Shown here one piece after another: positions 4,060 to 64,000 of a stretch of 64,000 nt of DNA (position 1 is the first letter of the stretch; the number at the start of each line of letters is the position of its first letter). The DNA comes from an uncultured Thermodesulfobacterium sp. (GTDB lineage Bacteria > Desulfobacterota > Thermodesulfobacteria > Thermodesulfobacteriales > Thermodesulfobacteriaceae). The DNA is taken from contig CALLJG010000011.1 of NCBI GenBank assembly GCA_938091335.1, positions 1,245 through 65,244 on the forward strand, read 5' to 3'. The notes below the pieces were generated by a model. It was not told the origin of the DNA and made no database searches. It saw only the letters and a list, made by a program, of their open reading frames with translations. Made by a program: the position numbers and the translations under genes.

Positions 4060-6937
4060 TTATTTTTTAAGTATTTATTCTCTAAATAATGAAAATATTT
4101 TAAAGGTTTGGTGTATTTTTCCTACCAAAAGAGCAGGTCTTTATTTTAAATATTATCTTAAAAAGAAAGCAAGCTCTAAAAAATTTAATTTTGGTTTTTT
4201 ACCAAAAATCCTTTCTTTTGAAGAATTTGTAGATTATCTTTATTTACTTTTAACAGAGAATCCTTTTTCTCAAGTTTCTGAAGTTCTAAGAGTTTTTATT
4301 TTTTTAGAGATTTTAGAAAAGGTTTTGGAAGAAAAAGAAGATCTTGAAAGACACTTTCATTGGGGATTAAAGTTTTTGGAGGTATTTGAGGAATTTGAAA
4401 AAGAAGGAAAAATTCCAGAAAATCTTTTATATCCCCCAGAAGGTTTACCTGAAATAGCCCAAAAATTTTTTGAAACACTAAAAACCACTTATCTTAATTT
4501 TTCCTCATTAATTGAAAAGAAAAATTTTTCCTATTATACCTTAAGACTTAAAAAAATAGCAGAAATTTTAAAAGAAAAAGTTCCAATAAACACTCTTTCT
4601 CAAGAAATAAAAGAAATATGGTTTATAGGATTTGCAGGATTGAGAAAAACAGAAACAGAAATTTTTAAATTTTTTAAAAAATATTTTACTTCCTATTTTA
4701 TTTTTGAAGCTGACCTTGATATACCCTCAGTTATTAAAGAAACCTTAAAAAGCCTTAATTTAGAATATAGATGGATAGAAGAAAAATATTATGAAAAGAG
4801 ACATTTTAAAGAACCAGAAATTTATTTTTATGAAACTTCAGACCCACACTTACAGGTAAAGTCTGCTGTTGAACTTCTTGAGAAAAAAATTGAAAATCCT
4901 GATGAAATAGTTATAGTAGTTCCTAATTCATTAAATCTTTTGCCTTTACTCTATGCTTTGGAAGACAAAGAAAATTCTTTTGAGATAAATATTACTCTTC
5001 AATATCCTATTAACAAAATTCCTTTAAATCAGCTTTTAAGAAATGTTATAAGAGCTCAAAAAGAAAGAGAAGGAGAATACTATCCTATACAGAGTTATCT
5101 TAAAATTTTGAAACATCCCTATCTATCTAATATTAAATTAGATGAGTGGGTCTCCTTTTCAAAAACAATAACGGAAATAGAAAAAGAATTGAGAAAAAAA
5201 GGATATGTAAAAATTTTGCTTTCAGAAGTAGAAGAGCTCTTTCCAGATAAAAAAGAATTTTTATCAAAGGTTCATCATGTATTTTTTAAAAATTGGGAAA
5301 ATATAAATAATTCTTATAAAATGTGTTTAAATCTTAAAAAGATTTTGGAATTTTTTGAGCCATTTTTTGAAAAATCTAAAGATGAAGATTCTTGGCATTC
5401 TATTCTTTTAAGAAATTATCTTCATATTCTTGAAAAAAAAGTTTTTCCAGTATTAGAAGATGATTTTTTAAAAGATAAGAAGTTTTCACAAACCTTTTTA
5501 TTGGAACTTCTTGAACAAATTTTAAGGGAAGAAAATATTCATTTTATAGGAGATCCCTTGAAAGGACTTCAAATTATGGGATTTTTAGAAACAAGGCTTT
5601 TGTCTTTTAAAAAAGTAATTATTTTAGATGTAAATGAAGGTTATTTACCAGCATCTCCATCTTTTAATCCGCTTCTTACAGAGGAAATAAAAAATTATTT
5701 AGGTATTCCTATATTTAAAAATGAACTTTGGTTTTATTATTTTGATAGGCTCATTAAAAGTGCTGAGGAAGTGCATCTTTTCTATCTTTTTGTTGAGAAA
5801 GGTAAAACTCAAGAATTTAGAGAACCTTCAAGATTTATTCAGAAGCTAAAATGGGATATAGAAAAAAAAGATCAAAAACCAAAAGAAAAATTACTACATT
5901 TAAAACTTGAAATTTTTTCAGAAAAAGAAGGCATACCAAAAAGTGAAAAAGATAGAGAAAGAATTTTAAATCTTATAAAGACTTCAGAAATAAGTAGATA
6001 CTTTTTAGAAACTTATCTTAGATGTGGAGTTCAATTTTATTTTAAATATCTTTTAAAACTTAAAGAAGTTGATAAATTTGGATTAAAACCTGTAGAAGTA
6101 GGAAATTTTATTCATGAATTTTTTGAAAGAATTTTTAAAGAATTTGAAGGAAAGGAAATACTTATTAATGAAATTTATGATGAAAAAAGGATACTTAAAA
6201 GGCTTGATCTTTTATGGGAAAGTTATCAATTTGAAAGAAAAATGGATGCTCTTTCTCATTTTCTCTCCAAAAAGCTTGCAATAGAAAGTATAAGGAGATA
6301 TTTTAACTATTTAATAGAAAAGGAAAAAAGGGGAGAAATTAAATCAAATAAAATTTTAGGAGTTGAAAGAGAACTGATTTATTTTACCAATTGGAATGGT
6401 TTAAAAATTTTATTAAAAGGAAGAGCTGACTTTTTAATAAAAAGAGTGGGTAATTTTACTCAATATTTTATTCTTGACTATAAAAGCAATCCTGATTCCT
6501 CTCCCCATCCTAATAAGGCAAAAGCATTATTAAACCTTAATTTGCCAAAAAGTTATGACCAAAACTCCATTTATGAAGTTACTAAAATGTTGGGAAACGA
6601 TCTTTACAGCTTTCAACCACTTTTTTATTATTATCTTTTCTATCAACAAAAAGAAAAGTTTATAACTGAACAAAATGGAGAATTTTTTATTATAAATGCA
6701 GGCTTTATAACTCCTTCAGATTTTAAAAAACCTGAAAAATTTCTTTTTAATGTATCTAAGATAGGAGAATGGAATTTAATTTATAAATTTTTTAAAACCG
6801 ATTTTTTTAAGTTAATTGAATGGATTTTAAATCACATTATAATAAGTGATAAGTTTTACTTTTCTTCTAATGATGAAGTTTGTAAATATTGTGTATATAA
6901 GGATCTTTGTAAAAATTATAAATATCTAATAGATTAG
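4010..6937 (+). CDS. AddB-like PD-(D/E)XK nuclease family protein with a Cas4/AddB-type Fe-S cluster nuclease domain (TTG start)
   Basis: 975 aa. The C-terminal domain has LRCGVQFYF (first Cys), GNFIHEFFE, GRADFLIK, ILDYKSN (D-x-K) and a terminal CKYCVYKDLC (CxxCx5C). The N-terminal region is helicase-like, but I found no canonical Walker A (it reads FPTKRAGLYF). Confidence 0.7.
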   Translation: MILLIPPSSIFLKTLANYFLSIYSLNNENILKVWCIFPTKRAGLYFKYYLKKKASSKKFNFGFLPKILSFEEFVDYLYLLLTENPFSQVSEVLRVFIFLEILEKVLEEKEDLERHFHWGLKFLEVFEEFEKEGKIPENLLYPPEGLPEIAQKFFETLKTTYLNFSSLIEKKNFSYYTLRLKKIAEILKEKVPINTLSQEIKEIWFIGFAGLRKTETEIFKFFKKYFTSYFIFEADLDIPSVIKETLKSLNLEYRWIEEKYYEKRHFKEPEIYFYETSDPHLQVKSAVELLEKKIENPDEIVIVVPNSLNLLPLLYALEDKENSFEINITLQYPINKIPLNQLLRNVIRAQKEREGEYYPIQSYLKILKHPYLSNIKLDEWVSFSKTITEIEKELRKKGYVKILLSEVEELFPDKKEFLSKVHHVFFKNWENINNSYKMCLNLKKILEFFEPFFEKSKDEDSWHSILLRNYLHILEKKVFPVLEDDFLKDKKFSQTFLLELLEQILREENIHFIGDPLKGLQIMGFLETRLLSFKKVIILDVNEGYLPASPSFNPLLTEEIKNYLGIPIFKNELWFYYFDRLIKSAEEVHLFYLFVEKGKTQEFREPSRFIQKLKWDIEKKDQKPKEKLLHLKLEIFSEKEGIPKSEKDRERILNLIKTSEISRYFLETYLRCGVQFYFKYLLKLKEVDKFGLKPVEVGNFIHEFFERIFKEFEGKEILINEIYDEKRILKRLDLLWESYQFERKMDALSHFLSKKLAIESIRRYFNYLIEKEKRGEIKSNKILGVERELIYFTNWNGLKILLKGRADFLIKRVGNFTQYFILDYKSNPDSSPHPNKAKALLNLNLPKSYDQNSIYEVTKMLGNDLYSFQPLFYYYLFYQQKEKFITEQNGEFFIINAGFITPSDFKKPEKFLFNVSKIGEWNLIYKFFKTDFFKLIEWILNHIIISDKFYFSSNDEVCKYCVYKDLCKNYKYLID

Positions 6938-8016: not shown

Positions 8017-8910
8017 ATGAAAAACCATCCCTTATCTATCTTAATTCCTACCTATAATAGAAGATCTTTGTTAGAAGAAAACCTAAATTCTATTTTTGAA
8101 CAAAAGCTCTCTAAGGAGGTGGAAATTGTAGTAATAGATGATGGCTCTGAAGATAACACTTGGGAGTATTTATGTTCTTTAAGAGAAAAACATTCAAATC
8201 TAAAAATATATAGACATAATGAAAATTTAGGGGTAAGTGCAGCAAGAAATTCTGCTCTATCTTTTGCTACCAGTCCCTATATAATGTTTCTGGATTCAGA
8301 TGATTATTTAACTGACAAGGCATTAGAAAAAATTTTTAATAAAATAGAGGAAAAAAGAGAAGTTTATATAATTACCCCTTTTGTAGAAAAAAAAGGAAGG
8401 ATAAAGAAGAAAAAATTTCCAGATCCTCCTCCTGACCCATTTCTTAGGTTAAAGTATTATATTGATGGAATTTATGCGGATGGAGTTTATGTTTGTCAAA
8501 GAAAAATTTTTGATAATTTCAAATTTAATATAAGGCTTAGAGTAAGAGAAGATTGGGTATTTAATGGTAAGATATTTTCTCTCTTTAGGCCGGAGCTTAT
8601 AAAAGATCCTTTAGTAGTTAAACGGGATCATCCACAAAGGTTAAGATATCTTCCACACTTTTATGAAGAGTGTGCGCTTCTCTCTGTAGAGGAACTTTTT
8701 CAAAGTTTACCTAATTTTTTTCAGATGCTTTACCCTTATGCAAAAGCTAAAGCTTATCTTGAGCTTGCAACTAAATATATAAAAATCAAAAATTATAAAA
8801 AGGCTTATCTAAATTTACAAAAAGCAAAGGAGATCTATCCTCCAATTAGAAAAGATTATAAATTTTTCAAGAAATGGCTTAAAAGTTTTATTTTTTCAAA
8901 GTTTTCTTAA
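8017..8910 (+). CDS. Family 2 glycosyltransferase
   Basis: LSILIPTYNR, VIDDGSEDNT and FLDSDD (DxD) motifs. I prefer ATG 8017 to 7993 because the first 8 codons of the tracked ORF overlap the upstream gene. Confidence 0.8.
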   Translation: MKNHPLSILIPTYNRRSLLEENLNSIFEQKLSKEVEIVVIDDGSEDNTWEYLCSLREKHSNLKIYRHNENLGVSAARNSALSFATSPYIMFLDSDDYLTDKALEKIFNKIEEKREVYIITPFVEKKGRIKKKKFPDPPPDPFLRLKYYIDGIYADGVYVCQRKIFDNFKFNIRLRVREDWVFNGKIFSLFRPELIKDPLVVKRDHPQRLRYLPHFYEECALLSVEELFQSLPNFFQMLYPYAKAKAYLELATKYIKIKNYKKAYLNLQKAKEIYPPIRKDYKFFKKWLKSFIFSKFS

Positions 8911-8923
8911 ATTTTTTTAAATT

Positions 8924-9679
8924 ATGAAAGTATTTAACTTTATAGAGATTGAGCCTAAATTATATGTGGAAAAGAGATACTTAAAACTTTTTAAAGAGAG
9001 TAGCTTTCTTTCTAAAATTTCTTCCTGGGATAATTTGGGAAATTTTTATGAAGTAACCTTTTCTCATAAAAAGGCTTATAGAGAAATAAAGGCACTTAGG
9101 ATAGCAGATTTGGAGATTTATTTAAAAAAATACTCAAAAAATCTTTCAGAGGCACGAAAGGAGTGGGAAAATATAAATTTACTCTGGGATAAGGGCTTTC
9201 CTACTTCCTTACCAATTTTATTTTATCAAACTCACTCCTTTGCTATCATAGGGACGGCAAAACTCCGAGGAAGATCCTTTGTTGATTTACTACCTAAAGA
9301 GAATCTTATTGTTTATAATCTCATAAAAAAAATAGCTAAATTCTTAGCTGATTTTCATAAAGAAAATTTAATTCACCAAGATTGTTACTTAAATCACTTC
9401 TATTTTGGGGAAGAACTTGATCAACTTTATATTATAGATGTCTCAAGAGTGAAATATAAACCTTTTCTTTTTTGTTATTATCAAATAAAGGATTTAAGCC
9501 AACTTAGATTTTCTTTTTATAAATATTTAGGAAAGGATTGGCTCAATTTGTGGGAACTTTTTTTAAAAACTTATGAAAAGGAGTTAGGAAAATCTTTAAA
9601 TTTTTTTAAGAAAAATTTACTTTTAATTAAGTTTAAAAGAATAGAGAAACATACAAAGAAATTAGAAAAAATTAGTTAG
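8924..9679 (+). CDS. Lipopolysaccharide kinase (Kdo/WaaP) family protein
   Basis: Kinase-like catalytic loop IHQDCYLNHF and a DVS (DFG-like) motif. The length and LPS-cluster context also fit. Confidence 0.65.
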   Translation: MKVFNFIEIEPKLYVEKRYLKLFKESSFLSKISSWDNLGNFYEVTFSHKKAYREIKALRIADLEIYLKKYSKNLSEARKEWENINLLWDKGFPTSLPILFYQTHSFAIIGTAKLRGRSFVDLLPKENLIVYNLIKKIAKFLADFHKENLIHQDCYLNHFYFGEELDQLYIIDVSRVKYKPFLFCYYQIKDLSQLRFSFYKYLGKDWLNLWELFLKTYEKELGKSLNFFKKNLLLIKFKRIEKHTKKLEKIS

Positions 9680-57451: not shown

Positions 57452-58087
57452 TCAAGGGTTTTCTCCTATATAGATTTCTTCTTTTAATTTAGGTGAAAAT
57501 TCCCTAAGAGCTTTTTTAATAAGTGTATCTAATGTATCTGTTTCTTCAAAAATTTTATATAAAATTTTTTCTACCTCTTTACCTTGAAATCCTAAACTCA
57601 TAAGACAGCTCTTAGCTTCTTCAAGAAGTATCTCTTTTTCAGGAGGAAGAAAGATCCCTTTCTGAAAGGGTTTCAAAAAGAGAGATTTTAACTCAAGATA
57701 AAGTTTTTCAGCTCTTTTTGGACCTATTCCAGGCACTTTTGAAAGTTCATGAACTTTTTTATTAATAATTACCTCTCTTAAAGTTTCAGGAGAAAATACA
57801 GAAAGCAAATTCAAAGCCAATTTTGGTCCTATTTTTGAAAGATTGTTTAATTTAATAAAAAGCTCTCTTTCATCTTTATTTAAAAATCCATATATTTCTA
57901 TATATTCATTTTTTCTTAATATAGGTACCACATAAAAAGTGATCTCCTTTTCTAAAAAATTTTTTCTTAAAAGATCAACCAAATTTAAAGGAATTAATAG
58001 TTCCAATAAAATAAAATTATTTGTTTGTAAGATGAGTTTATTTGGAGGATTTATCTCTTTTAGTTTTCCTTTAATCTGATATAGCAT
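57452..58087 (-). CDS. ruvA: Holliday junction DNA helicase subunit RuvA
   Basis: OB-fold N-terminus (MLYQIKGKL), two HhH motifs (LSKIGPKLALNLL and VPGIGPKRAEKL), and a C-terminal domain III. Confidence 0.9.
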   Translation of the reverse strand: MLYQIKGKLKEINPPNKLILQTNNFILLELLIPLNLVDLLRKNFLEKEITFYVVPILRKNEYIEIYGFLNKDERELFIKLNNLSKIGPKLALNLLSVFSPETLREVIINKKVHELSKVPGIGPKRAEKLYLELKSLFLKPFQKGIFLPPEKEILLEEAKSCLMSLGFQGKEVEKILYKIFEETDTLDTLIKKALREFSPKLKEEIYIGENP

Positions 58088-58088
58088 T

Positions 58089-58580
58089 TTATTGATTTAA
58101 TTCCCAAGCTATTATTAGGGCAATAGCAAGAGCATCCATTTTATGAGGATCTGGTTTAAGGTCTTTTTTTACTTTGATAATTTTTTCTTTTATAAGTAAA
58201 TTTAAGAGATGAGAAAGTTCTTCTTTTTTAGATTTTCCATATTGAGTAAAAAATTTTTTTATTTCTAAAGGATGATAAACTTTTATAGGAATTTGGTAAA
58301 GACCAGCTATAATCAATGCAATAGCTTGAGCTTGAGCAAGTTTGGTCCCTGCTTTTGAATAAGGTTTAACAAAAATATCTTCTACTCCTATTATATCTGG
58401 TTTTAATTTTTTAATTGTATCTTTTAAGGAATTAAAAAGATAAGTAAGTTTTTCTACATCTGTTTTTAATTTATCAGTAGTAAAAGTGTCCCATATTTTT
58501 AATTCTGGAATTCCATTTTTAACTTTTAAAAAAGCAAAAGCCAAGTTATGAAGTCCTGGATCAATTCCTAAAATTTTCAT
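58089..58580 (-). CDS. ruvC: Crossover junction endodeoxyribonuclease RuvC
   Basis: MKILGIDPGL (catalytic Asp), VEDIF, and a C-terminal HKMDALAIAL. Confidence 0.9.
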   Translation of the reverse strand: MKILGIDPGLHNLAFAFLKVKNGIPELKIWDTFTTDKLKTDVEKLTYLFNSLKDTIKKLKPDIIGVEDIFVKPYSKAGTKLAQAQAIALIIAGLYQIPIKVYHPLEIKKFFTQYGKSKKEELSHLLNLLIKEKIIKVKKDLKPDPHKMDALAIALIIAWELNQ

Positions 58581-59326
58581 CTGCTTAAATTTTCCATAAT
58601 GGTTTCTGGAATATCAAAGTTAGCATATATTTGTTGAACATCTTCTAAATCATCCAGAGCTTCCATAAGTTTTAAAAGATTAGAAGCTATTGATTCATCT
58701 TTAACTGGGACAATAGATTTTGGAACCATGGTAATTTTAGCAGAGATTATTTCAATATCCGCTGATTCAAGAGCATTTTTTACTTTTTCAAATTGAGCAG
58801 GATCAGTAATAACTTCTATCTCACTTTCATATTCCTTAGTGTCTTCTGCTCCTTCTTCTATAGCTATTTCCAAAACTTTATCTTCATCTTTCTTAGAGAC
58901 TACTATAAGACCTTTTTGTTCAAATATCCAAGATACAGCTCCTGGTTCTGCGAGACTTCCTCCAAATTTACTAAAAATATGTCTCAATTCAGAAACAGTT
59001 CTTCTTCTATTATCAGTAATAGCATTAATTAAAATAGCAACCCCACCAGGGCCATAACCTTCAAAAATAACTTCTTCATATTGAATCCCCTCTTCTAAAC
59101 CGAGAGCTTTTTTAATAGCTCTTTCTATATTTTCTTTTGGCATATGAGCTGCTTTTGCTACTTGAATAGCATTTCTTAATCGAGGATTTATCTCAGGATC
59201 CCCACTTCCTCCAGTTTTTACTGCTACCATAATTTCTCTAATAAGTTTTGTAAAAAGTTGTCCTCTTTTTGCATCTTGAACTGCTTTTTTTCTTTTTATT
59301 TGAGCCCAATGAGAATGTCCAGCCAT
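58577..59326 (-). CDS. yebC: YebC/PmpR-family transcriptional regulator
   Basis: MAGHSHWAQIKRKKA at the N-terminus. It occupies the classic position upstream of ruvC. Confidence 0.9.
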   Translation of the reverse strand: MAGHSHWAQIKRKKAVQDAKRGQLFTKLIREIMVAVKTGGSGDPEINPRLRNAIQVAKAAHMPKENIERAIKKALGLEEGIQYEEVIFEGYGPGGVAILINAITDNRRRTVSELRHIFSKFGGSLAEPGAVSWIFEQKGLIVVSKKDEDKVLEIAIEEGAEDTKEYESEIEVITDPAQFEKVKNALESADIEIISAKITMVPKSIVPVKDESIASNLLKLMEALDDLEDVQQIYANFDIPETIMENLSR

Positions 59327-59376
59327 AGACTTTACTCCTCTTTTAGGCTGATTTTTTACTTAAAGTATACTTAGTC

Positions 59377-59404
59377 TTGTAAAAATTTCAAATTTTATTA
59401 GAAT
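59377..59404 (+). promoter_or_regulatory. Possible sigma-70 promoter for tRNA-Leu (TTGTAA-N16-TAGAAT)
   Basis: The hexamers are at 59377-59382 and 59399-59404, about 20 nt upstream of the mature tRNA 5' end. The AT-rich context makes this tentative. Confidence 0.3.
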
Positions 59405-59423
59405 ATATTTCAGTTTTGAAATA

Positions 59424-59508
59424 GCCGAGGTGGCGGAATTGGAAGACGCGGTGGACTCAAAATCCACTGGGGTTTAGCCCCGTGCGGGTTCGAGTCCCGC
59501 CCTCGGCA
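59424..59508 (+). tRNA. tRNA-Leu (anticodon CAA), long variable arm
   Basis: GCCGAGGTGGCGGAATTGGAAGACGCGGTGGACTCAAAATCCACTGGGGTTTAGCCCCGTGCGGGTTCGAGTCCCGCCCTCGGCA. The anticodon loop is CTCAAAA. Confidence 0.9.
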
Positions 59509-59562
59509 TTGGAATTTATAGAGTATAGGTTTTTCTCTACTAAAAAATTATGAAAAAAATTA

Positions 59563-60393
59563 TTACTTCTTTTTAACAACTAAAACAGGACAAGTTGCTG
59601 TACCAATAACTCTTTCAGTAACACTACCTATAAAGAATTTTTCAATACCTGTCTTACCGTATACACCCATTACTATAAGACCCACATTATTTTTATTTGC
59701 TATGTTAACAATCTGTTCAAAAGGCTCTCCCTTTTCAACAACTATTTGAATTTTCACACCTTCACGCTCTGCAGCCTCTTTAACTGTTTTTACTGACTCT
59801 TCTGCATAAAGAATATTTTCATCCTTTTTTGCAACTGAAACAGCAATAAGCTCGCTGTTAAATCTTTTTGCCATGCCTATTGCTTCAGAGGCGGCTATGT
59901 TACTATATACTGAGCCATCAGTTGCAATAAGTATCTTGTCAAATTTAAGAGTTGTTCCAATAGGAATTACTAAAATTTTGCAAGGAGCATTTCTAATTAC
60001 TTTTTTGCCAACGGCACCAAGCATTAAACCTTTTCTACCAAGAACTATAATATCAACACTGTTTTTTATTGCTTCATCAATTATGTATTTATAAGGTTCT
60101 GATCCTATATAACTTATAGTTTCACATTTTACCCCAGCCTTATCTGCAATTTCTTTTACCTTCTCAAGAACTTGTTTTGCTCTTTTTTCCATTATCTCAA
60201 TTACCTGTGGAAGGGTTTCAATAAACTCTGCTGCAAAAGTTGGTACTTCTGCAACACATATACCATAAACTGTACTTCCACAAGTTTTTGCAAGCTCAAT
60301 AGCTGCCTGTGCTGCAGATTTTGCTGCCTCAGAGCCATCTGTGGCTACAAGTATTTTATCTACCTTTATTAAAGGACAAGGTCCAATTGACAT
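59563..60393 (-). CDS. Tandem universal stress protein (two UspA domains)
   Basis: Two repeats, each starting ILVATDGS / ILIATDGS and ending in a G-x2-G-x9-GSV-type ATP-binding motif (GVYGKTGIEKFFIGSVTERV). 276 aa. Confidence 0.85.
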   Translation of the reverse strand: MSIGPCPLIKVDKILVATDGSEAAKSAAQAAIELAKTCGSTVYGICVAEVPTFAAEFIETLPQVIEIMEKRAKQVLEKVKEIADKAGVKCETISYIGSEPYKYIIDEAIKNSVDIIVLGRKGLMLGAVGKKVIRNAPCKILVIPIGTTLKFDKILIATDGSVYSNIAASEAIGMAKRFNSELIAVSVAKKDENILYAEESVKTVKEAAEREGVKIQIVVEKGEPFEQIVNIANKNNVGLIVMGVYGKTGIEKFFIGSVTERVIGTATCPVLVVKKK

Positions 60394-60394
60394 C

Positions 60395-61141
60395 TTATAC
60401 CTCCTTTTTTACTTTTGCTTTTTTTGTAGAAAGACCTAAACCTTCAAATAAATACAAAACCCCAAAACCATACCAAATTGTATAAAGAACATAAAAAATA
60501 AGAAGACCTGCAGCAAGCCCTACCTTTTCAGAAATTTTTATAGCTTGTATTCCATAAAAATTATATGCAGGTTCAATAGCTTTTATCATAACATTTTTTA
60601 CCACAGTAGCCTCTTGTACCTTTTTCTCAAGTATAAATTTTTTATGTATTTCACTAAATGCATTATGCCACTGCCTAAACATTTGTTTCATTTTTTCATC
60701 ATCTGTAACTCCATATTTTTTCTTTATATAATCTCCGTTGTTATGGTACATTTGATCTGAATCTTCAAGAGCAGCAGCCATAATAGCTCCCAAATCAGCT
60801 ATTATATGAACTTTTGAACCTTCTACTTCTGCTTTAGCTCCATTTGTCATAAAGACCTTAGCAATTCTTTCTGCTCTTTTTTCTGCATCACCAGGCGTAT
60901 CTGTAGGTTTCTTTACATCAATCACTATATCAAGTACTTTACCTTTAAAATTTTCAACATCTTTCTTTAACTTTGGAATATGATAACAAGAACCTTTAGC
61001 TAATTTGTTAAATAACTCATCAGCATATTCCAATCCATTTAAACCACCAGGAAATAAGGGTGAAAATATTAATATAAGTACACCAATAAAGCTTATCAGT
61101 AAAATTAATCCCCATGTGAAATGTTTTTTCTCAGTAACCAT
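60395..61141 (-). CDS. Hypothetical bitopic membrane protein (N- and C-terminal TM helices, soluble core of about 170 aa)
   Basis: TM1 is WGLILLISFIGVLILIFSPLF. TM2 (or TM2 plus TM3) is VGLAAGLLIFYVLYTIWYGFGVLYLF. I recognise no family. Gaps to both neighbours are 1-2 nt. Confidence 0.5.
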   Translation of the reverse strand: MVTEKKHFTWGLILLISFIGVLILIFSPLFPGGLNGLEYADELFNKLAKGSCYHIPKLKKDVENFKGKVLDIVIDVKKPTDTPGDAEKRAERIAKVFMTNGAKAEVEGSKVHIIADLGAIMAAALEDSDQMYHNNGDYIKKKYGVTDDEKMKQMFRQWHNAFSEIHKKFILEKKVQEATVVKNVMIKAIEPAYNFYGIQAIKISEKVGLAAGLLIFYVLYTIWYGFGVLYLFEGLGLSTKKAKVKKEV

Positions 61142-61143
61142 AG

Positions 61144-62400
61144 CTATACCTCCTCTCTTAGAGTTTTTAAGTTTTTAAAGAAACTACTTAAAACCCAAAG
61201 TGCAAACGCTGCAATTGCAGCCCAGAAAATGATATTTCCAATAAGTATTATAGTGTCACATATTGATTTAGAAATTGTCCACAATTCAAGACTTCTTAAT
61301 TTATCAGGAACAACACTTGCTCTATTTGCAAAACCTGCTAAAATTGTAAGTACCCAAAAACCTCTAATAACCATTCCAGGAACAACCTTTGTTGTAAGAG
61401 CACCAATCTGAATTCCAATAAGTGAACCTAAAAGAAGACCCATTGCAAGTGTATAGAAAACATATCCATAAATTGCATATTGAGTTATTGATGAATAACC
61501 TGCAGTAAATATTATTTGTAATAAATCCGTTCCAACTGTAGTAGGTGTGGATACCCCTAGTACATACACAAAAAGTGGAAAGGTTATAAAACCACCACCA
61601 ACTCCCATAACTGCTGCAAGAAGACCAACTAAGAACCCACACATACTAACAAATAACCAAGATATTCTTCTTCCTCCAAAATCTTCATCAAAATAAATCA
61701 TAGGAGGAATTTTAATTTTCTGGATATTAAGTGCAAGTTGTGTTGTTGTCAAAGGCGCACCATGTACATCTGCACTCACTGTTATACCTTTTTTACGAGC
61801 TATACTAAGTTTTATATAGTCTCTTAAACCATAAATTCCTAGAAACCCAAGTATGGAAGCATATATAACACTTATGAATGCCTCACTTAAAACAGGATTT
61901 ATGTTATAAATACTTCTTTGTATGTAACCTCCAGTTGTTGCACCTAAAACAGAACCAAGAACAAAGGCAATTGCTAATCCAACACATACATTACCAAGCT
62001 TTTTATGAACAATAGTTCCCATAATAGCTTTTGCAAAGATATGAAACTGATCAGTTCCAACTGCTAAAATTCCTTTAACACCTGCTGCCATAAGAGCCGG
62101 TGTAATAATAAAGCCTCCACCAGCTCCTATACACCCTGTAATTAAGCCTGCTGCAAAACCTACTGTTATCGAGGCTATAAATATTGTTGTAGTGTAATGA
62201 GCTGGTGCATAAGCTGCTTTACCACCAAGAATATCTGCTGCACAAAGAAGAGATACTATAAGAATTGGAGAAAGAAGAGCAATTAAAATTAATAATCTCT
62301 TTTTGTTTTTTAAAATATTATCTGCCATCTGTTTTTCCCATCGGGCCTGATATATTGCCCCAGCCATCATAAATTCATAAACTTTTCTTAACTTACTCAT
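61144..62400 (-). CDS. TSUP (TauE/SafE) family anion permease, long form (418 aa)
   Basis: Two internal repeats each carry the TSUP glycine motif (GCIGAGGGFIITP and AVMGVGGGFITFP). They are separated by a hydrophilic loop of about 60 aa. A GAGGGGGG RBS lies upstream. Confidence 0.8.
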   Translation of the reverse strand: MSKLRKVYEFMMAGAIYQARWEKQMADNILKNKKRLLILIALLSPILIVSLLCAADILGGKAAYAPAHYTTTIFIASITVGFAAGLITGCIGAGGGFIITPALMAAGVKGILAVGTDQFHIFAKAIMGTIVHKKLGNVCVGLAIAFVLGSVLGATTGGYIQRSIYNINPVLSEAFISVIYASILGFLGIYGLRDYIKLSIARKKGITVSADVHGAPLTTTQLALNIQKIKIPPMIYFDEDFGGRRISWLFVSMCGFLVGLLAAVMGVGGGFITFPLFVYVLGVSTPTTVGTDLLQIIFTAGYSSITQYAIYGYVFYTLAMGLLLGSLIGIQIGALTTKVVPGMVIRGFWVLTILAGFANRASVVPDKLRSLELWTISKSICDTIILIGNIIFWAAIAAFALWVLSSFFKNLKTLREEV

Positions 62401-62570
62401 TTCACACCCCCCTCTTTTTAGTTCTTTTATTTTCCTTTTTTCTTGCTTTTTTCAGCTTTTTTCTAAGTCTGTTAAACTCTTTTGATTTAGAAAATTATAT
62501 TAATACAACCATATCTTTTATCTTCTTCAAACTTTTTTCGTTTACTTATTTTCGTTACTTATTTTTAAGT

Positions 62571-62587
62571 ATGCAACAAATATGCCA
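62571..62587 (-). promoter_or_regulatory. Sigma-54 (-24/-12) promoter: TGGCATATTTGTTGCAT
   Basis: The minus strand reads TGGCAT-N5-TTGCAT with exact GG-N10-GC spacing. It lies about 170 nt upstream of the TSUP gene ATG and directly downstream of a sigma-54 activator gene. Confidence 0.6.
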
Positions 62588-62638
62588 TATTAGAAATTTA
62601 GTAAAAATAAAGGTTCATTGATAAAAGTAAATATTTAT

Positions 62639-62655
62639 TGCAACATATAGTTGCA
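62639..62655. promoter_or_regulatory. Perfect palindrome TGCAAC-ATATA-GTTGCA, candidate enhancer (UAS) for the adjacent sigma-54 activator
   Basis: A 6+5+6 perfect inverted repeat centred about 70 bp upstream of the -24 element. A degenerate copy (AGCAAC-ATTTT-GTTTCA) sits at 62702-62718, about 63 bp further upstream. Confidence 0.4.
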
Positions 62656-62725
62656 TATTTAATCTTTAAAGAGATAAATTGTATAAAAAACGTTATAAAA
62701 AAGCAACATTTTGTTTCATTTAAAT

Positions 62726-64000
62726 TTATGTAGCAATTTTAAATTGTTTTAGTTTGCGTTGGAGTTGTTGGCGATGTATTCCAAGAATTTTTGCTGCTTT
62801 AGAGATATTACCTCTACTTTTTTGCAATGCTGACCAAATTAGTTCTTTTTCAAAATTATTAATTGCTTCTTTTAGTGTTCCCTGAAGAGGTTTTTTAGAG
62901 ATTGAATTTTTTTGTAAATAAGCTGGAAGATCCTTAACAGTTATCTCTGCAGAGTTTGTAAATGCAATTGCTCTTTCTATAATGTTTTCAAGTTCTCTTA
63001 TATTTCCTGGAAAAGAGTAATTCATTAAAACATCAAGAGCTTCATCTGTAATTCCTCTAACTTGAAGATCTTTTCTTTTCGAGGAATGTTTTTTTATAAA
63101 ATGTTCAACTAAAGCAGGAATATCTTCTTTTCTGCTTCTTAAAGGAGGGATTTCTATATGAATGACATTCAATCTATAAAAAAGATCTTCTCTAAAGGTG
63201 CCTTCTTTACATGCCTTAAGAAGATCTTTATTTGTAGCTGCGATGAATCTAACATCTACTTTTATATATGATGTTCCTCCTATTCTTATAAATTCACCTT
63301 CTTGAATCACTCTGAGGATTTTTGTTTGAAAAAGTGGTGACACATCTCCTATTTCATCAAAAAATAAGGTTCCTTCATTAGCCCATTCAATTAATCCTTT
63401 TTTTGTATAGTTTGCCCCTGTAAAAGCCCCTTTTTCAAAACCAAAAAGTTCTGATTCCAGTAAAGTATCTGGAATGGCTGTACAGTTTATAACAACAAAG
63501 GGCTTTTCTTTTCTTTCGCTTAATTTGTGAATTGCTCTTGCAACAAGCTCTTTACCTGTGCCTGACTCACCAGTAATAAGAACATTACTATCTGTAAGAG
63601 CTGCCTTTCTTATACCACAATAAACATTATCCATTATCTTGCTTGTACCTATTATTCCCTCTATTTCTATTTGTGGTTTATCTTTAAAATTTTCAAAAAT
63701 CTCTTTAAGCTCTTCACTTTTTAAGGGTTTTTGTAAAAAGTCTGTTGCGCCTAATTTCATTGATTTTATTGCCTTTTTAAGGTCAGAGTTGCCAAAAGTA
63801 ATTACTGGTATATATTGTTTTAGTTTCATTAGTCTGTTTTCCCATCCTTCTGTGTCTATATCAAGAAATGCTATATCATAAAAAGATAAATTTGAGAGGG
63901 TTTGTTTTTTTTGTTGAAAAGATTTTCTTAAAGTAATACCAATTGACTCAAAAATATCATAAAGCTTTTCTACTTCATCAGATATTACAAGAACATTAAA
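62726..64000 (-). CDS. Sigma-54-dependent response regulator (NtrC family: REC + AAA+ + Fis-type HTH); N-terminus runs off the window
   Basis: The frame stays open upstream of the tracked Met to nt 64000 (NVLVISDEVEKLYDIFE...YDIAFLDIDT is a receiver domain). Walker A is GESGTGKE, the GAFTGA loop is EKGAFTGA, and the C-terminal HTH is NISKAAKILGIHRQQLQRKLK. Confidence 0.9.
   Translation of the reverse strand, partial: FNVLVISDEVEKLYDIFESIGITLRKSFQQKKQTLSNLSFYDIAFLDIDTEGWENRLMKLKQYIPVITFGNSDLKKAIKSMKLGATDFLQKPLKSEELKEIFENFKDKPQIEIEGIIGTSKIMDNVYCGIRKAALTDSNVLITGESGTGKELVARAIHKLSERKEKPFVVINCTAIPDTLLESELFGFEKGAFTGANYTKKGLIEWANEGTLFFDEIGDVSPLFQTKILRVIQEGEFIRIGGTSYIKVDVRFIAATNKDLLKACKEGTFREDLFYRLNVIHIEIPPLRSRKEDIPALVEHFIKKHSSKRKDLQVRGITDEALDVLMNYSFPGNIRELENIIERAIAFTNSAEITVKDLPAYLQKNSISKKPLQGTLKEAINNFEKELIWSALQKSRGNISKAAKILGIHRQQLQRKLKQFKIAT

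Follow-up and report, generated by a model that had tools for sequence, protein, structure and literature searches.

We studied a 64,000-nucleotide stretch of DNA (the window) from an uncultured Thermodesulfobacterium sp. (contig CALLJG010000011.1), whose right end carries a putative sulfur-oxyanion transport operon next to the gene of a sigma-54-dependent activator. All four genes of the locus lie on the minus strand, as stated in a preliminary description made from the sequence alone, and the open reading frames (ORFs) of the activator, of a TauE/SafE (TSUP) permease, of a 248-amino-acid protein (here U248) and of a universal stress protein (USP) also matched that description (Table 1). The activator gene runs off the window end; its full length of 430 amino acids (aa) was read from an identical Logan contig (L001). 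A 325-bp intergenic region with a -24/-12 promoter was found between the activator and TSUP genes as described, and the gaps between the following three genes, given earlier as 1-2 nt, measured 2 nt (TSUP/U248) and 1 nt (U248/USP). The final codons of TSUP (…GAGGAGGTA TAG) double as a Shine-Dalgarno sequence for U248, and those of U248 (…AGGAGGTA TAA) do the same for USP, so that the motifs GAGGAGG and AGGAGG lie inside the last codons of the upstream genes. The 3' end of the operon is marked by a convergent tRNA-Leu(CAA) gene 55 nt downstream of USP; no convincing intrinsic terminator was seen after USP.

Table 1 Positions of the operon, its regulatory elements and associated features (window positions unless a locus is named)
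Feature	Position	Strand	Basis or remark
tRNA-Leu(CAA), convergent	59424..59508	plus	ARAGORN; Rfam tRNA 59.2 bits
USP	59563-60393	minus	ORF call, 276 aa; PF00582 matched twice
U248 (unknown protein)	60395-61141	minus	ORF call, 248 aa
TSUP permease	61144-62400	minus	ORF call, 418 aa; PF01925
Activator-TSUP intergenic region	62401-62725		325 bp
Small leader ORF remnant, decayed	62415..62541	minus	read from alignment A2
Sigma-54 promoter TGGCAT-ATTTG-TTGCA (TGGCATATTTGTTGCA)	62572-62587	minus	GG at -24, GC at -12
Enhancer site 2 (predicted), TGCAAC-N5-GTTGCA, perfect palindrome	62639..62655		~60 bp upstream of -24
Enhancer site 1 (predicted), TGAAAC-AAAAT-GTTGCT	62702..62718	minus	block kept in alignment A2
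Sigma-54 activator (enhancer-binding protein)	62726..64000, continues past window end	minus	Pfam Sigma54_activat, AAA_lid_14, HTH_8
PAS kinase	L028:11766-13205, L009:11802-13217
PAS kinase remnant	L006:9691-9807

The TSUP permease, its partner U248 and the tandem USP

The TSUP protein scored 122.8 bits against PF01925 (cut-off 32.6) over residues 78-356, and its layout is that of an 8-helix core with one extra transmembrane helix at each end. A 4+4 duplication of the core was evident from the invariant motifs AAGLITGCIGAGGGF and MGVGGGF (alignment A4) and from the helices of an AlphaFold2 (AF2) model of low confidence. The length of 418 aa and the hydrophilic insert noted in the preliminary description both stood, but the insert, a central loop with the conserved motif PPxIxFDxDFGGR, spans ~50 aa (residues ~194-244) instead of 60 and is not the sole source of the extra length, since ~77 N-terminal and 62 C-terminal residues, which carry the extra helices, also contribute to it; the N-terminal part has a further helix ahead of its extra transmembrane one. 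Among the best 120 homologues most were 414-438 aa long and 63-88% identical, two shorter ones being likely fragments, and Firmicute and deltaproteobacterial members were 51-57% identical. A sequence search of the PDB with TSUP found nothing.

U248, which had been left unplaced in any family, indeed gave no Pfam or NCBIfam match, and its profile found no sequence match in the PDB. In the AF2 model of U248, with a predicted local distance difference test (pLDDT) score of 84, a transmembrane helix at the N-terminus is followed by ~170 aa of alpha/beta domain and then by a long helix at the C-terminus; the latter is also transmembrane, and the protein ends in the invariant tail GLGLSxKKxKxKKE. 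Because positive charges are present at both ends (N-terminal KKH, KKxKxKKE tail), the soluble domain is predicted to lie outside. Foldseek comparison of the model with the PDB returned nothing at E <= 0.001, with TM-scores <=0.22. A KH-like or DUF77-like fold, hinted at by weak Foldseek matches, was discarded as not significant, and the name 'YqgV/DUF77' that JGI gives to some U248 members was likewise unsupported by this outcome. We found 809 homologues of U248 at E <= 0.001, and a profile search recovered 412 clusters among 1.84 billion representatives, nearly all of them 230-255 aa long.

The genes for TSUP and U248 were adjacent in 22/22 related loci with enough flanking sequence, a full-length TSUP of ~420 aa lying directly upstream of U248. 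Pair-bearing loci spanned Nitrospirota, Thermodesulfobacteriota, Bacillota, Desulfobacterota and one archaeal metagenome-assembled genome (MAG), and U248 is an obligate partner of this TSUP clade. Three divergent natural TSUP-U248 fusions were also found (P0258, of 671 aa, P0257 and P0237), in which the last helix of TSUP and the first of U248 are connected by a linker of 10-20 aa. On account of these fusions the two proteins are very probably subunits of one transporter, that is, a physical TSUP-U248 complex is very likely, and adjacency together with the fusions would mean that TSUP ends and U248 begins on one and the same membrane face.

The third gene had been taken to encode a two-domain universal stress protein, and PF00582 matched its product in two stretches (E 3.9e-51). 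Domain 2 (MGVYGKTGIEKFFIGSV) retains the ATP motif G-x2-G-x9-G-(S/T), in the form G-x2-G-x9-G-S. The ATP loop of domain 1 (residues ~119-127) has a deletion of 6-7 aa that all bacterial orthologues share but that is absent from the archaeal one, whose domain 1 motif is canonical (alignment A5). Orthologues of this USP follow U248 in Thermodesulfovibrio, in Thermodesulfobacterium commune and in the archaeal MAG (54% identity). In Halomonas elongata, TeaD, a protein with one USP domain, is encoded in the operon of the TRAP transporter TeaABC, whose substrate is ectoine, and modulates transport by ATP binding. The likeness lies in the presence of a USP in a transporter operon, whereas the USP of the window differs in being a tandem protein with one degenerate ATP loop.

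Sigma-54 promoter, enhancer sites and activator

The near-consensus -24/-12 promoter reported upstream of TSUP was confirmed: TGGCATATTTGTTGCA has GG and GC at the exact spacing and lies close to the consensus TGGCAC-N5-TTGCW, and it is the sole match to TGGCAY-N5-TTGCW in the 64 kb, where 0.09 would be expected by chance. Transcription is predicted to start at ~62561, which gives a 5' leader of ~161 nt. Two enhancer sites are predicted farther upstream. Site 2 is the sole match in the window at <=1 mismatch (0.03 expected by chance); site 1, located directly after the activator stop codon, has 2 mismatches to TGCAAC-N5-GTTGCA, and its counterpart in locus L019 is a perfect palindrome. An alignment was made of the region between the activator and TSUP genes from the window and from six Thermodesulfovibrio-type loci (alignment A2, seven regions). 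Both palindromes and the GG and GC elements were kept across the alignment, with a variable promoter spacer, and Thermodesulfovibrio yellowstonii presented the same pattern. Sigma-70-like matches in the intergenic region were at chance level (13 found vs 13.5 expected). No known riboswitch or other RNA family was found in the leader, since Rfam models at E up to 1 matched only the tRNA within 59000-64000, and no rpoN was present among the 10 window ORFs scanned. In the loci of Bacillota, Desulfobacterota, T. commune and D. intestinalis, the sequence upstream of TSUP gave no clear -24/-12 promoter in a simple pattern search; sigma-54 control was seen here only in the Thermodesulfovibrio-like group, to which the literature adds Desulfovibrio vulgaris (see below).

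When expression data were sought for the window organism, its own sequence turned up only in marine DNA metagenomes. Hot-spring and microbial-mat metatranscriptomes contain close relatives of locus L009, and in run X12 one contig of 3,619 nt, at a depth of 43, covers TSUP, U248 and USP of such a relative; in the same run the activator gene had a depth of 3-5 and most of the intergenic region a depth of 0. In L019, contigs from the independent runs X13 and X6 both stop at 2695, which is 17 nt downstream of the predicted +1. The end of the X6 contig is joined to unrelated sequence that we take to be 23S-rRNA-like, a junction that a genuine RNA end would be expected to give. The contigs of the relatives agree with co-transcription from the sigma-54 promoter, so the co-transcription of the three genes put forward in the preliminary description is backed by metatranscriptome contigs spanning TSUP-U248-USP, in relatives only. 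Its enhancer-dependent operon reading gained in the same way from these contigs and from the conservation of the promoter and enhancer sites, and the reading of the locus as a sigma-54-dependent operon is well supported, with the RNA 5' ends of the relatives as indirect support for dependence on RpoN and the activator.

The activator presented the domains Sigma54_activat (233.8 bits), AAA_lid_14 and HTH_8 (54.9 bits), with a Fis-type helix-turn-helix (HTH) and an intact GAFTGA loop, that is, the AAA+ domain with GAFTGA and the C-terminal HTH of NtrC-class enhancer-binding proteins. The REC-AAA+-HTH architecture proposed earlier thus held for AAA+, GAFTGA and HTH, while the REC part proved degenerate: the N-terminus is weakly REC-like, with 23.5 bits for Response_reg vs a Pfam cut-off of 30.2. 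Its ~110 aa align with receiver domains (alignment A3), with a Ser in place of the first acidic residue, two deletions and the conserved Thr missing. Asp48 and Asp53 are invariant in seven orthologues and Lys97 is invariant as well; judged from this alignment, phosphorylation of the activator is possible. Orthology to a named regulator (NtrC, AtoC, ZraR, NifA and others) was not found, all NCBIfam equivalog scores being far below the cut-offs.

A cognate kinase, which the preliminary description had not seen in the window and had suggested looking for past position 64000, was found in neither place: the 64 kb contain no homologue of the T. yellowstonii PAS kinase, USP has no kinase gene after it, and beyond 64000 contig L001 shows a heavy-metal P-type ATPase upstream of the activator and no kinase. 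No other locus shares this ATPase neighbour. In T. yellowstonii a PAS histidine kinase gene comes directly after USP, strain N1 has an orthologous one (73% identity) 2 kb downstream, and L006 retains only a 39-aa remnant of it. The PAS kinase is a candidate for a lost or relocated partner of the REC-like activator.

The leader of seven relatives (L002, L003, L006, L008, L009, L019 and L028) contains a conserved small ORF encoding a basic product of 43-61 aa starting MKKVWKKMKDLLVSITFSKPKEFDRL, annotated by the gene caller in T. yellowstonii. Among the seven relatives, variable sites per codon position were 8/3/20 of 26, and differing codons were 142 synonymous vs 65 non-synonymous, the other two frames giving 26/188 and 14/197. 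The ORF begins ~3 nt past the predicted sigma-54 start site, a position from which it may be translated in the relatives on a nearly leaderless mRNA. In the window the ATG has become ACG, and a 1-nt deletion and an in-frame TAA follow; this copy is a pseudogene. The leader of the window is also ~17 nt longer than that of all relatives, at ~62541-62566 (minus strand) between the promoter and the small-ORF remnant, and the extra nucleotides look like an imperfect tandem duplication (AAGTAACGAAAAT / AAGTAAACGAAAAA).

Distribution of the pair and published counterparts

Named U248 matches came from Thermodesulfovibrio, Caldimicrobium, Thermodesulfobacterium, Ca. Sulfobium, Desulforudis, Desulfosporosinus, Desulforhopalus, Desulfovibrio and Desulfatiglandales, and all matches from named cultured genera belong to sulfate reducers or sulfur disproportionators. 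Synteny of the trio in relatives, which the preliminary description had proposed to examine by comparative genomics, was strongly conserved. The full trio recurs in T. commune, without the activator gene, and in the archaeal MAG (L029:1-13173), where TSUP, U248 and USP are 67%, 46% and 54% identical to those of the window and an extra short USP is present. The archaeal trio lies ~3.7 kb from dsrMKJOP with an HdrD-like gene between, and the same stretch contains dsrC and a partial sulfite-reductase gene. The 67% identity of the archaeal TSUP suggests transfer between domains.

The neighbourhood of the pair varied among the other loci. In Desulfosporosinus it has a DASS symporter gene on one side and a SulP-STAS permease gene on the other; three paralogous proteins of ~200-240 aa are encoded around the DASS and TSUP-U248 genes (L014:2471-3058, 5059-5772 and 8812-9465, and the L021 equivalents), and neither of the two that were scanned matched Pfam. 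Desulforhopalus and a related MAG have a dCache kinase and a receiver upstream of the pair and a PPDK-like protein and a receiver downstream. D. intestinalis has the pair alone, and Desulforudis two inverted copies of it. In the Desulforudis-type loci L010 and L012 these inverted copies are 1-2 kb apart, with a sigma-54 activator a few kb off on the opposite strand. The Thermodesulfovibrio MAG stretch L019:1-3095 shows the one-strand order U248-USP-activator-TSUP, which suggests two tandem module copies or an assembly-collapsed repeat.

A highly conserved TSUP clade B has been described in 25/44 sulfate-reducer genomes from six phyla and proposed as a possible primary sulfate transporter (Marietou 2018, PMC5840216). 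According to the same source, the substrates of TSUP proteins are for the most part unproven, D. vulgaris has three SulP permeases of which none is essential, and two sulfate reducers without SulP, DASS and CysP have only TSUP-family candidates. Our TSUP resembles clade B in its high conservation across phyla of sulfate reducers, and the order DASS, two small genes, TSUP in the Desulfosporosinus loci L014 and L021 fits the published numbers of Desor_1742 (DASS) and Desor_1745 (TSUP). Judged indirectly, from the cross-phylum conservation and the D. vulgaris gene order, the window TSUP is a candidate member of clade B (DVU2958, Adeg_0175, Dret_2118). The U248 partner, the USP and the regulation are not described in the clade B paper.

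In D. vulgaris Hildenborough, the regulon of DVU2956 is the sigma-54 operon DVU2957-DVU2964/2967 (Kazakov 2015, PMC4641369); DVU2956 binds upstream of DVU2957 by gel shift, a sigma-54 promoter is predicted there, and the supplement annotates DVU2958 as a TSUP transporter, flanked by the hypothetical DVU2957 and by DVU2959, a hypothetical membrane protein (PMC4641369). Both systems have a sigma-54 promoter followed by a small ORF, a TSUP and a membrane protein, matched by gene order only, and both have an adjacent GAFTGA activator and an upstream inverted repeat, whose binding was shown by gel shift in D. vulgaris. Unlike the window activator, DVU2956 lacks the N-terminal domain and is divergently transcribed. 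Its site also differs (GCGGCAA-N4-TTGCCGC vs TGCAAC-N5-GTTGCA here), and the D. vulgaris operon goes on with a second activator, a kinase and receivers where the window has the USP instead.

The Desulfovibrio 'nitrate cluster' DVU0251-DVU0245 / Dde_0597-0605 (Korte 2014, PMC4001038) contains a TauE protein, a conserved hypothetical protein, a kinase, a receiver and a PPDK-like protein, the same parts as found around TSUP-U248 in L017 and L020. Its mutants are nitrate resistant and mildly impaired on thiosulfate, and a leaky thiosulfate transporter was suggested (PMC4001038). The likeness to the window is by annotation only and the sizes differ (DVU0251 has 320 aa and DVU0250 195 aa); the window is without the PtxB-like, kinase and PPDK-like genes of that cluster. 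A literature search with the locus tags Dde_0598-0604 found nothing. In Dissulfuribacter, a TauE protein and its partner rise together in thiosulfate disproportionation, a study from which it is clear that the co-occurrence of TauE and its partner had already been noticed by annotators (PMC13490349). None of the strains bearing DVU2958/2959, DVU0251/0250, Adeg_0175, Dret_2118 or DITHS69_1989/1990 was among our best 120 matches. The TSUP clade B of sulfate reducers and the D. vulgaris sigma-54 TSUP operon were thus already known; what this study adds is the obligate U248 subunit with its TSUP fusions, the occurrence of the trio with USP in both domains, the palindromic enhancer motif, the degeneracy of the receiver and the small ORF of the leader.

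Proposed function of the operon and alternatives

The operon might work as follows. In response to an inducing signal, the activator would bind the two TGCAAC-N5-GTTGCA sites ~60 and ~125 bp upstream of the -24/-12 promoter, and would hydrolyse ATP to drive the opening of the complex with sigma-54 RNA polymerase. The TSUP, U248 and USP genes, which would be translationally coupled, would share a single transcript that begins with the ~161-nt leader. TSUP and U248 would form one membrane transporter: TSUP would be a channel of 10 helices, and U248, held in the membrane by its two ends, probably turns its soluble domain, whose fold has no match, to the outside. The tandem USP would act on this transporter as a cytoplasmic nucleotide-binding regulator. 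Because the pair is almost confined to sulfur-oxyanion respirers and disproportionators, the substrate is most likely one of the inorganic sulfur oxyanions sulfate, thiosulfate and sulfite, and the likeliest direction would be uptake for dissimilatory metabolism. We favour, with modest confidence, this interpretation of the locus as an enhancer-dependent operon for a USP-regulated TSUP-U248 sulfur-oxyanion uptake transporter.

Transport of sulfur oxyanions is the best-supported function, on the grounds of distribution and gene context. The preliminary description had considered a regulated sulfur-oxyanion import or export unit, and its link to sulfur metabolism was strengthened by the distribution and by the dsr, DASS and SulP neighbours. 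Several observations weigh against the uptake operon as proposed. Substrate and direction are guesses from context, and DVU2958/DVU2959 and the other published clade B members were likened to the window proteins by gene order and conservation. Genes of the dsr group were within 10 kb of the pair in 1/29 loci, that of the archaeal MAG only, and a few U248 matches came from Actinomycetota and Dehalococcoidia MAGs of unchecked metabolism. The RNA support was obtained for organisms related to L009 and L019 instead of the window organism, and consists of assembled contigs without strand information, in which DNA admixture is possible. The AF2 model of TSUP is of low confidence (pLDDT 63), and in the receiver the conserved Thr and some of the acidic pocket are missing, which makes the way in which the activator would be switched on uncertain.

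The pair is also carried by Caldimicrobium, a genus of sulfur disproportionators, and a stress protein in the operon would suit a detoxification role; both would fit the same operon and complex serving as an exporter of sulfite, or of the sulfate from disproportionation, induced when a toxic intermediate accumulates. For TauE/SafE proteins that have been characterised, export of sulfite or sulfoacetate is proposed (cited in PMC5840216), and the Dissulfuribacter study proposes sulfite or sulfate export for the TauE pair (PMC13490349). We nevertheless consider export unlikely. In the two sulfate reducers without SulP, DASS and CysP, no candidate for sulfate import other than the pair is present (PMC5840216); the pair clusters in Desulfosporosinus with DASS and SulP genes, which belong to known anion-uptake families, and the mutant phenotype of the nitrate cluster, likened here by organisation only, was read as a lost uptake route (PMC4001038).

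The signalling genes near some of the pairs would also be expected if TSUP-U248 were mainly a sensor or 'transceptor' that reports an external solute to signalling proteins, with little bulk flux. Such neighbours are the dCache histidine kinase and receiver upstream and the PPDK-like protein and receiver downstream (L017, L020), the sigma-54 activators of L010-L012, the PAS kinase (L028, L009) and a REC-like gene (L026), and nitrate-cluster mutants in the TauE, response regulator and PPDK-like genes share one phenotype (PMC4001038). A common phenotype is, however, equally explained by regulators that control the transporter gene, the pairs of D. intestinalis and Caldimicrobium have no signalling neighbour, and the TSUP core is extremely conserved, with an invariant GxGGGF in both repeats, as for a working permease, all of which makes a sensor improbable. 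We give similarly little credence to a solute other than a sulfur oxyanion (for example an organic acid, sulfonate or metal complex), with the link to sulfate reducers due to shared habitat or transfer among thermophilic anaerobes: the largely unproven TSUP substrates (PMC5840216), the lateral transfer indicated by the 67% identity of archaeal and Nitrospirota TSUP and the heavy-metal P-type ATPase upstream of the activator in this organism speak for it, but that ATPase recurs in no other locus, the U248 family is narrow (412 clusters, see above) and the named cultured carriers are sulfur-oxyanion respirers of five phylum-level lineages from hot, mesophilic and gut habitats.

The uptake transporter favoured here can be extended, tentatively and with some doubt, to a more general proposal: TSUP and U248, with the USP as a regulatory third subunit, may be a dedicated sulfate/thiosulfate uptake system of dissimilatory sulfate reducers and may represent a new secondary-transporter architecture, in which a TSUP channel depends on an extracytoplasmic subunit that is anchored in the membrane and differs in fold from all solved structures. 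The route of sulfate into sulfate-reducing cells is still unsettled, and TSUP-U248 sharpens one candidate for it. A conserved TSUP that always comes with a partner, is sometimes fused to it and is often accompanied by a tandem USP points to a defined two- or three-protein unit. The promoter and enhancer now defined can be used to seek the inducing signal, and the proposal, if confirmed, would bear on how sulfate uptake, sulfur-isotope fractionation and souring control are modelled.

Two further features were observed around the operon. Beyond the tRNA gene, three tight ORFs of 249, 163 and 211 aa on the minus strand (57452-59326) resemble yebC, ruvC and ruvA by eye and appear unrelated to it. 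The G+C content was 0.31-0.37 over the yebC-like gene and the operon (58.5-62.4 kb) vs 0.23-0.29 at 54-58.5 kb, a rise that could reflect gene transfer or the composition of conserved genes.

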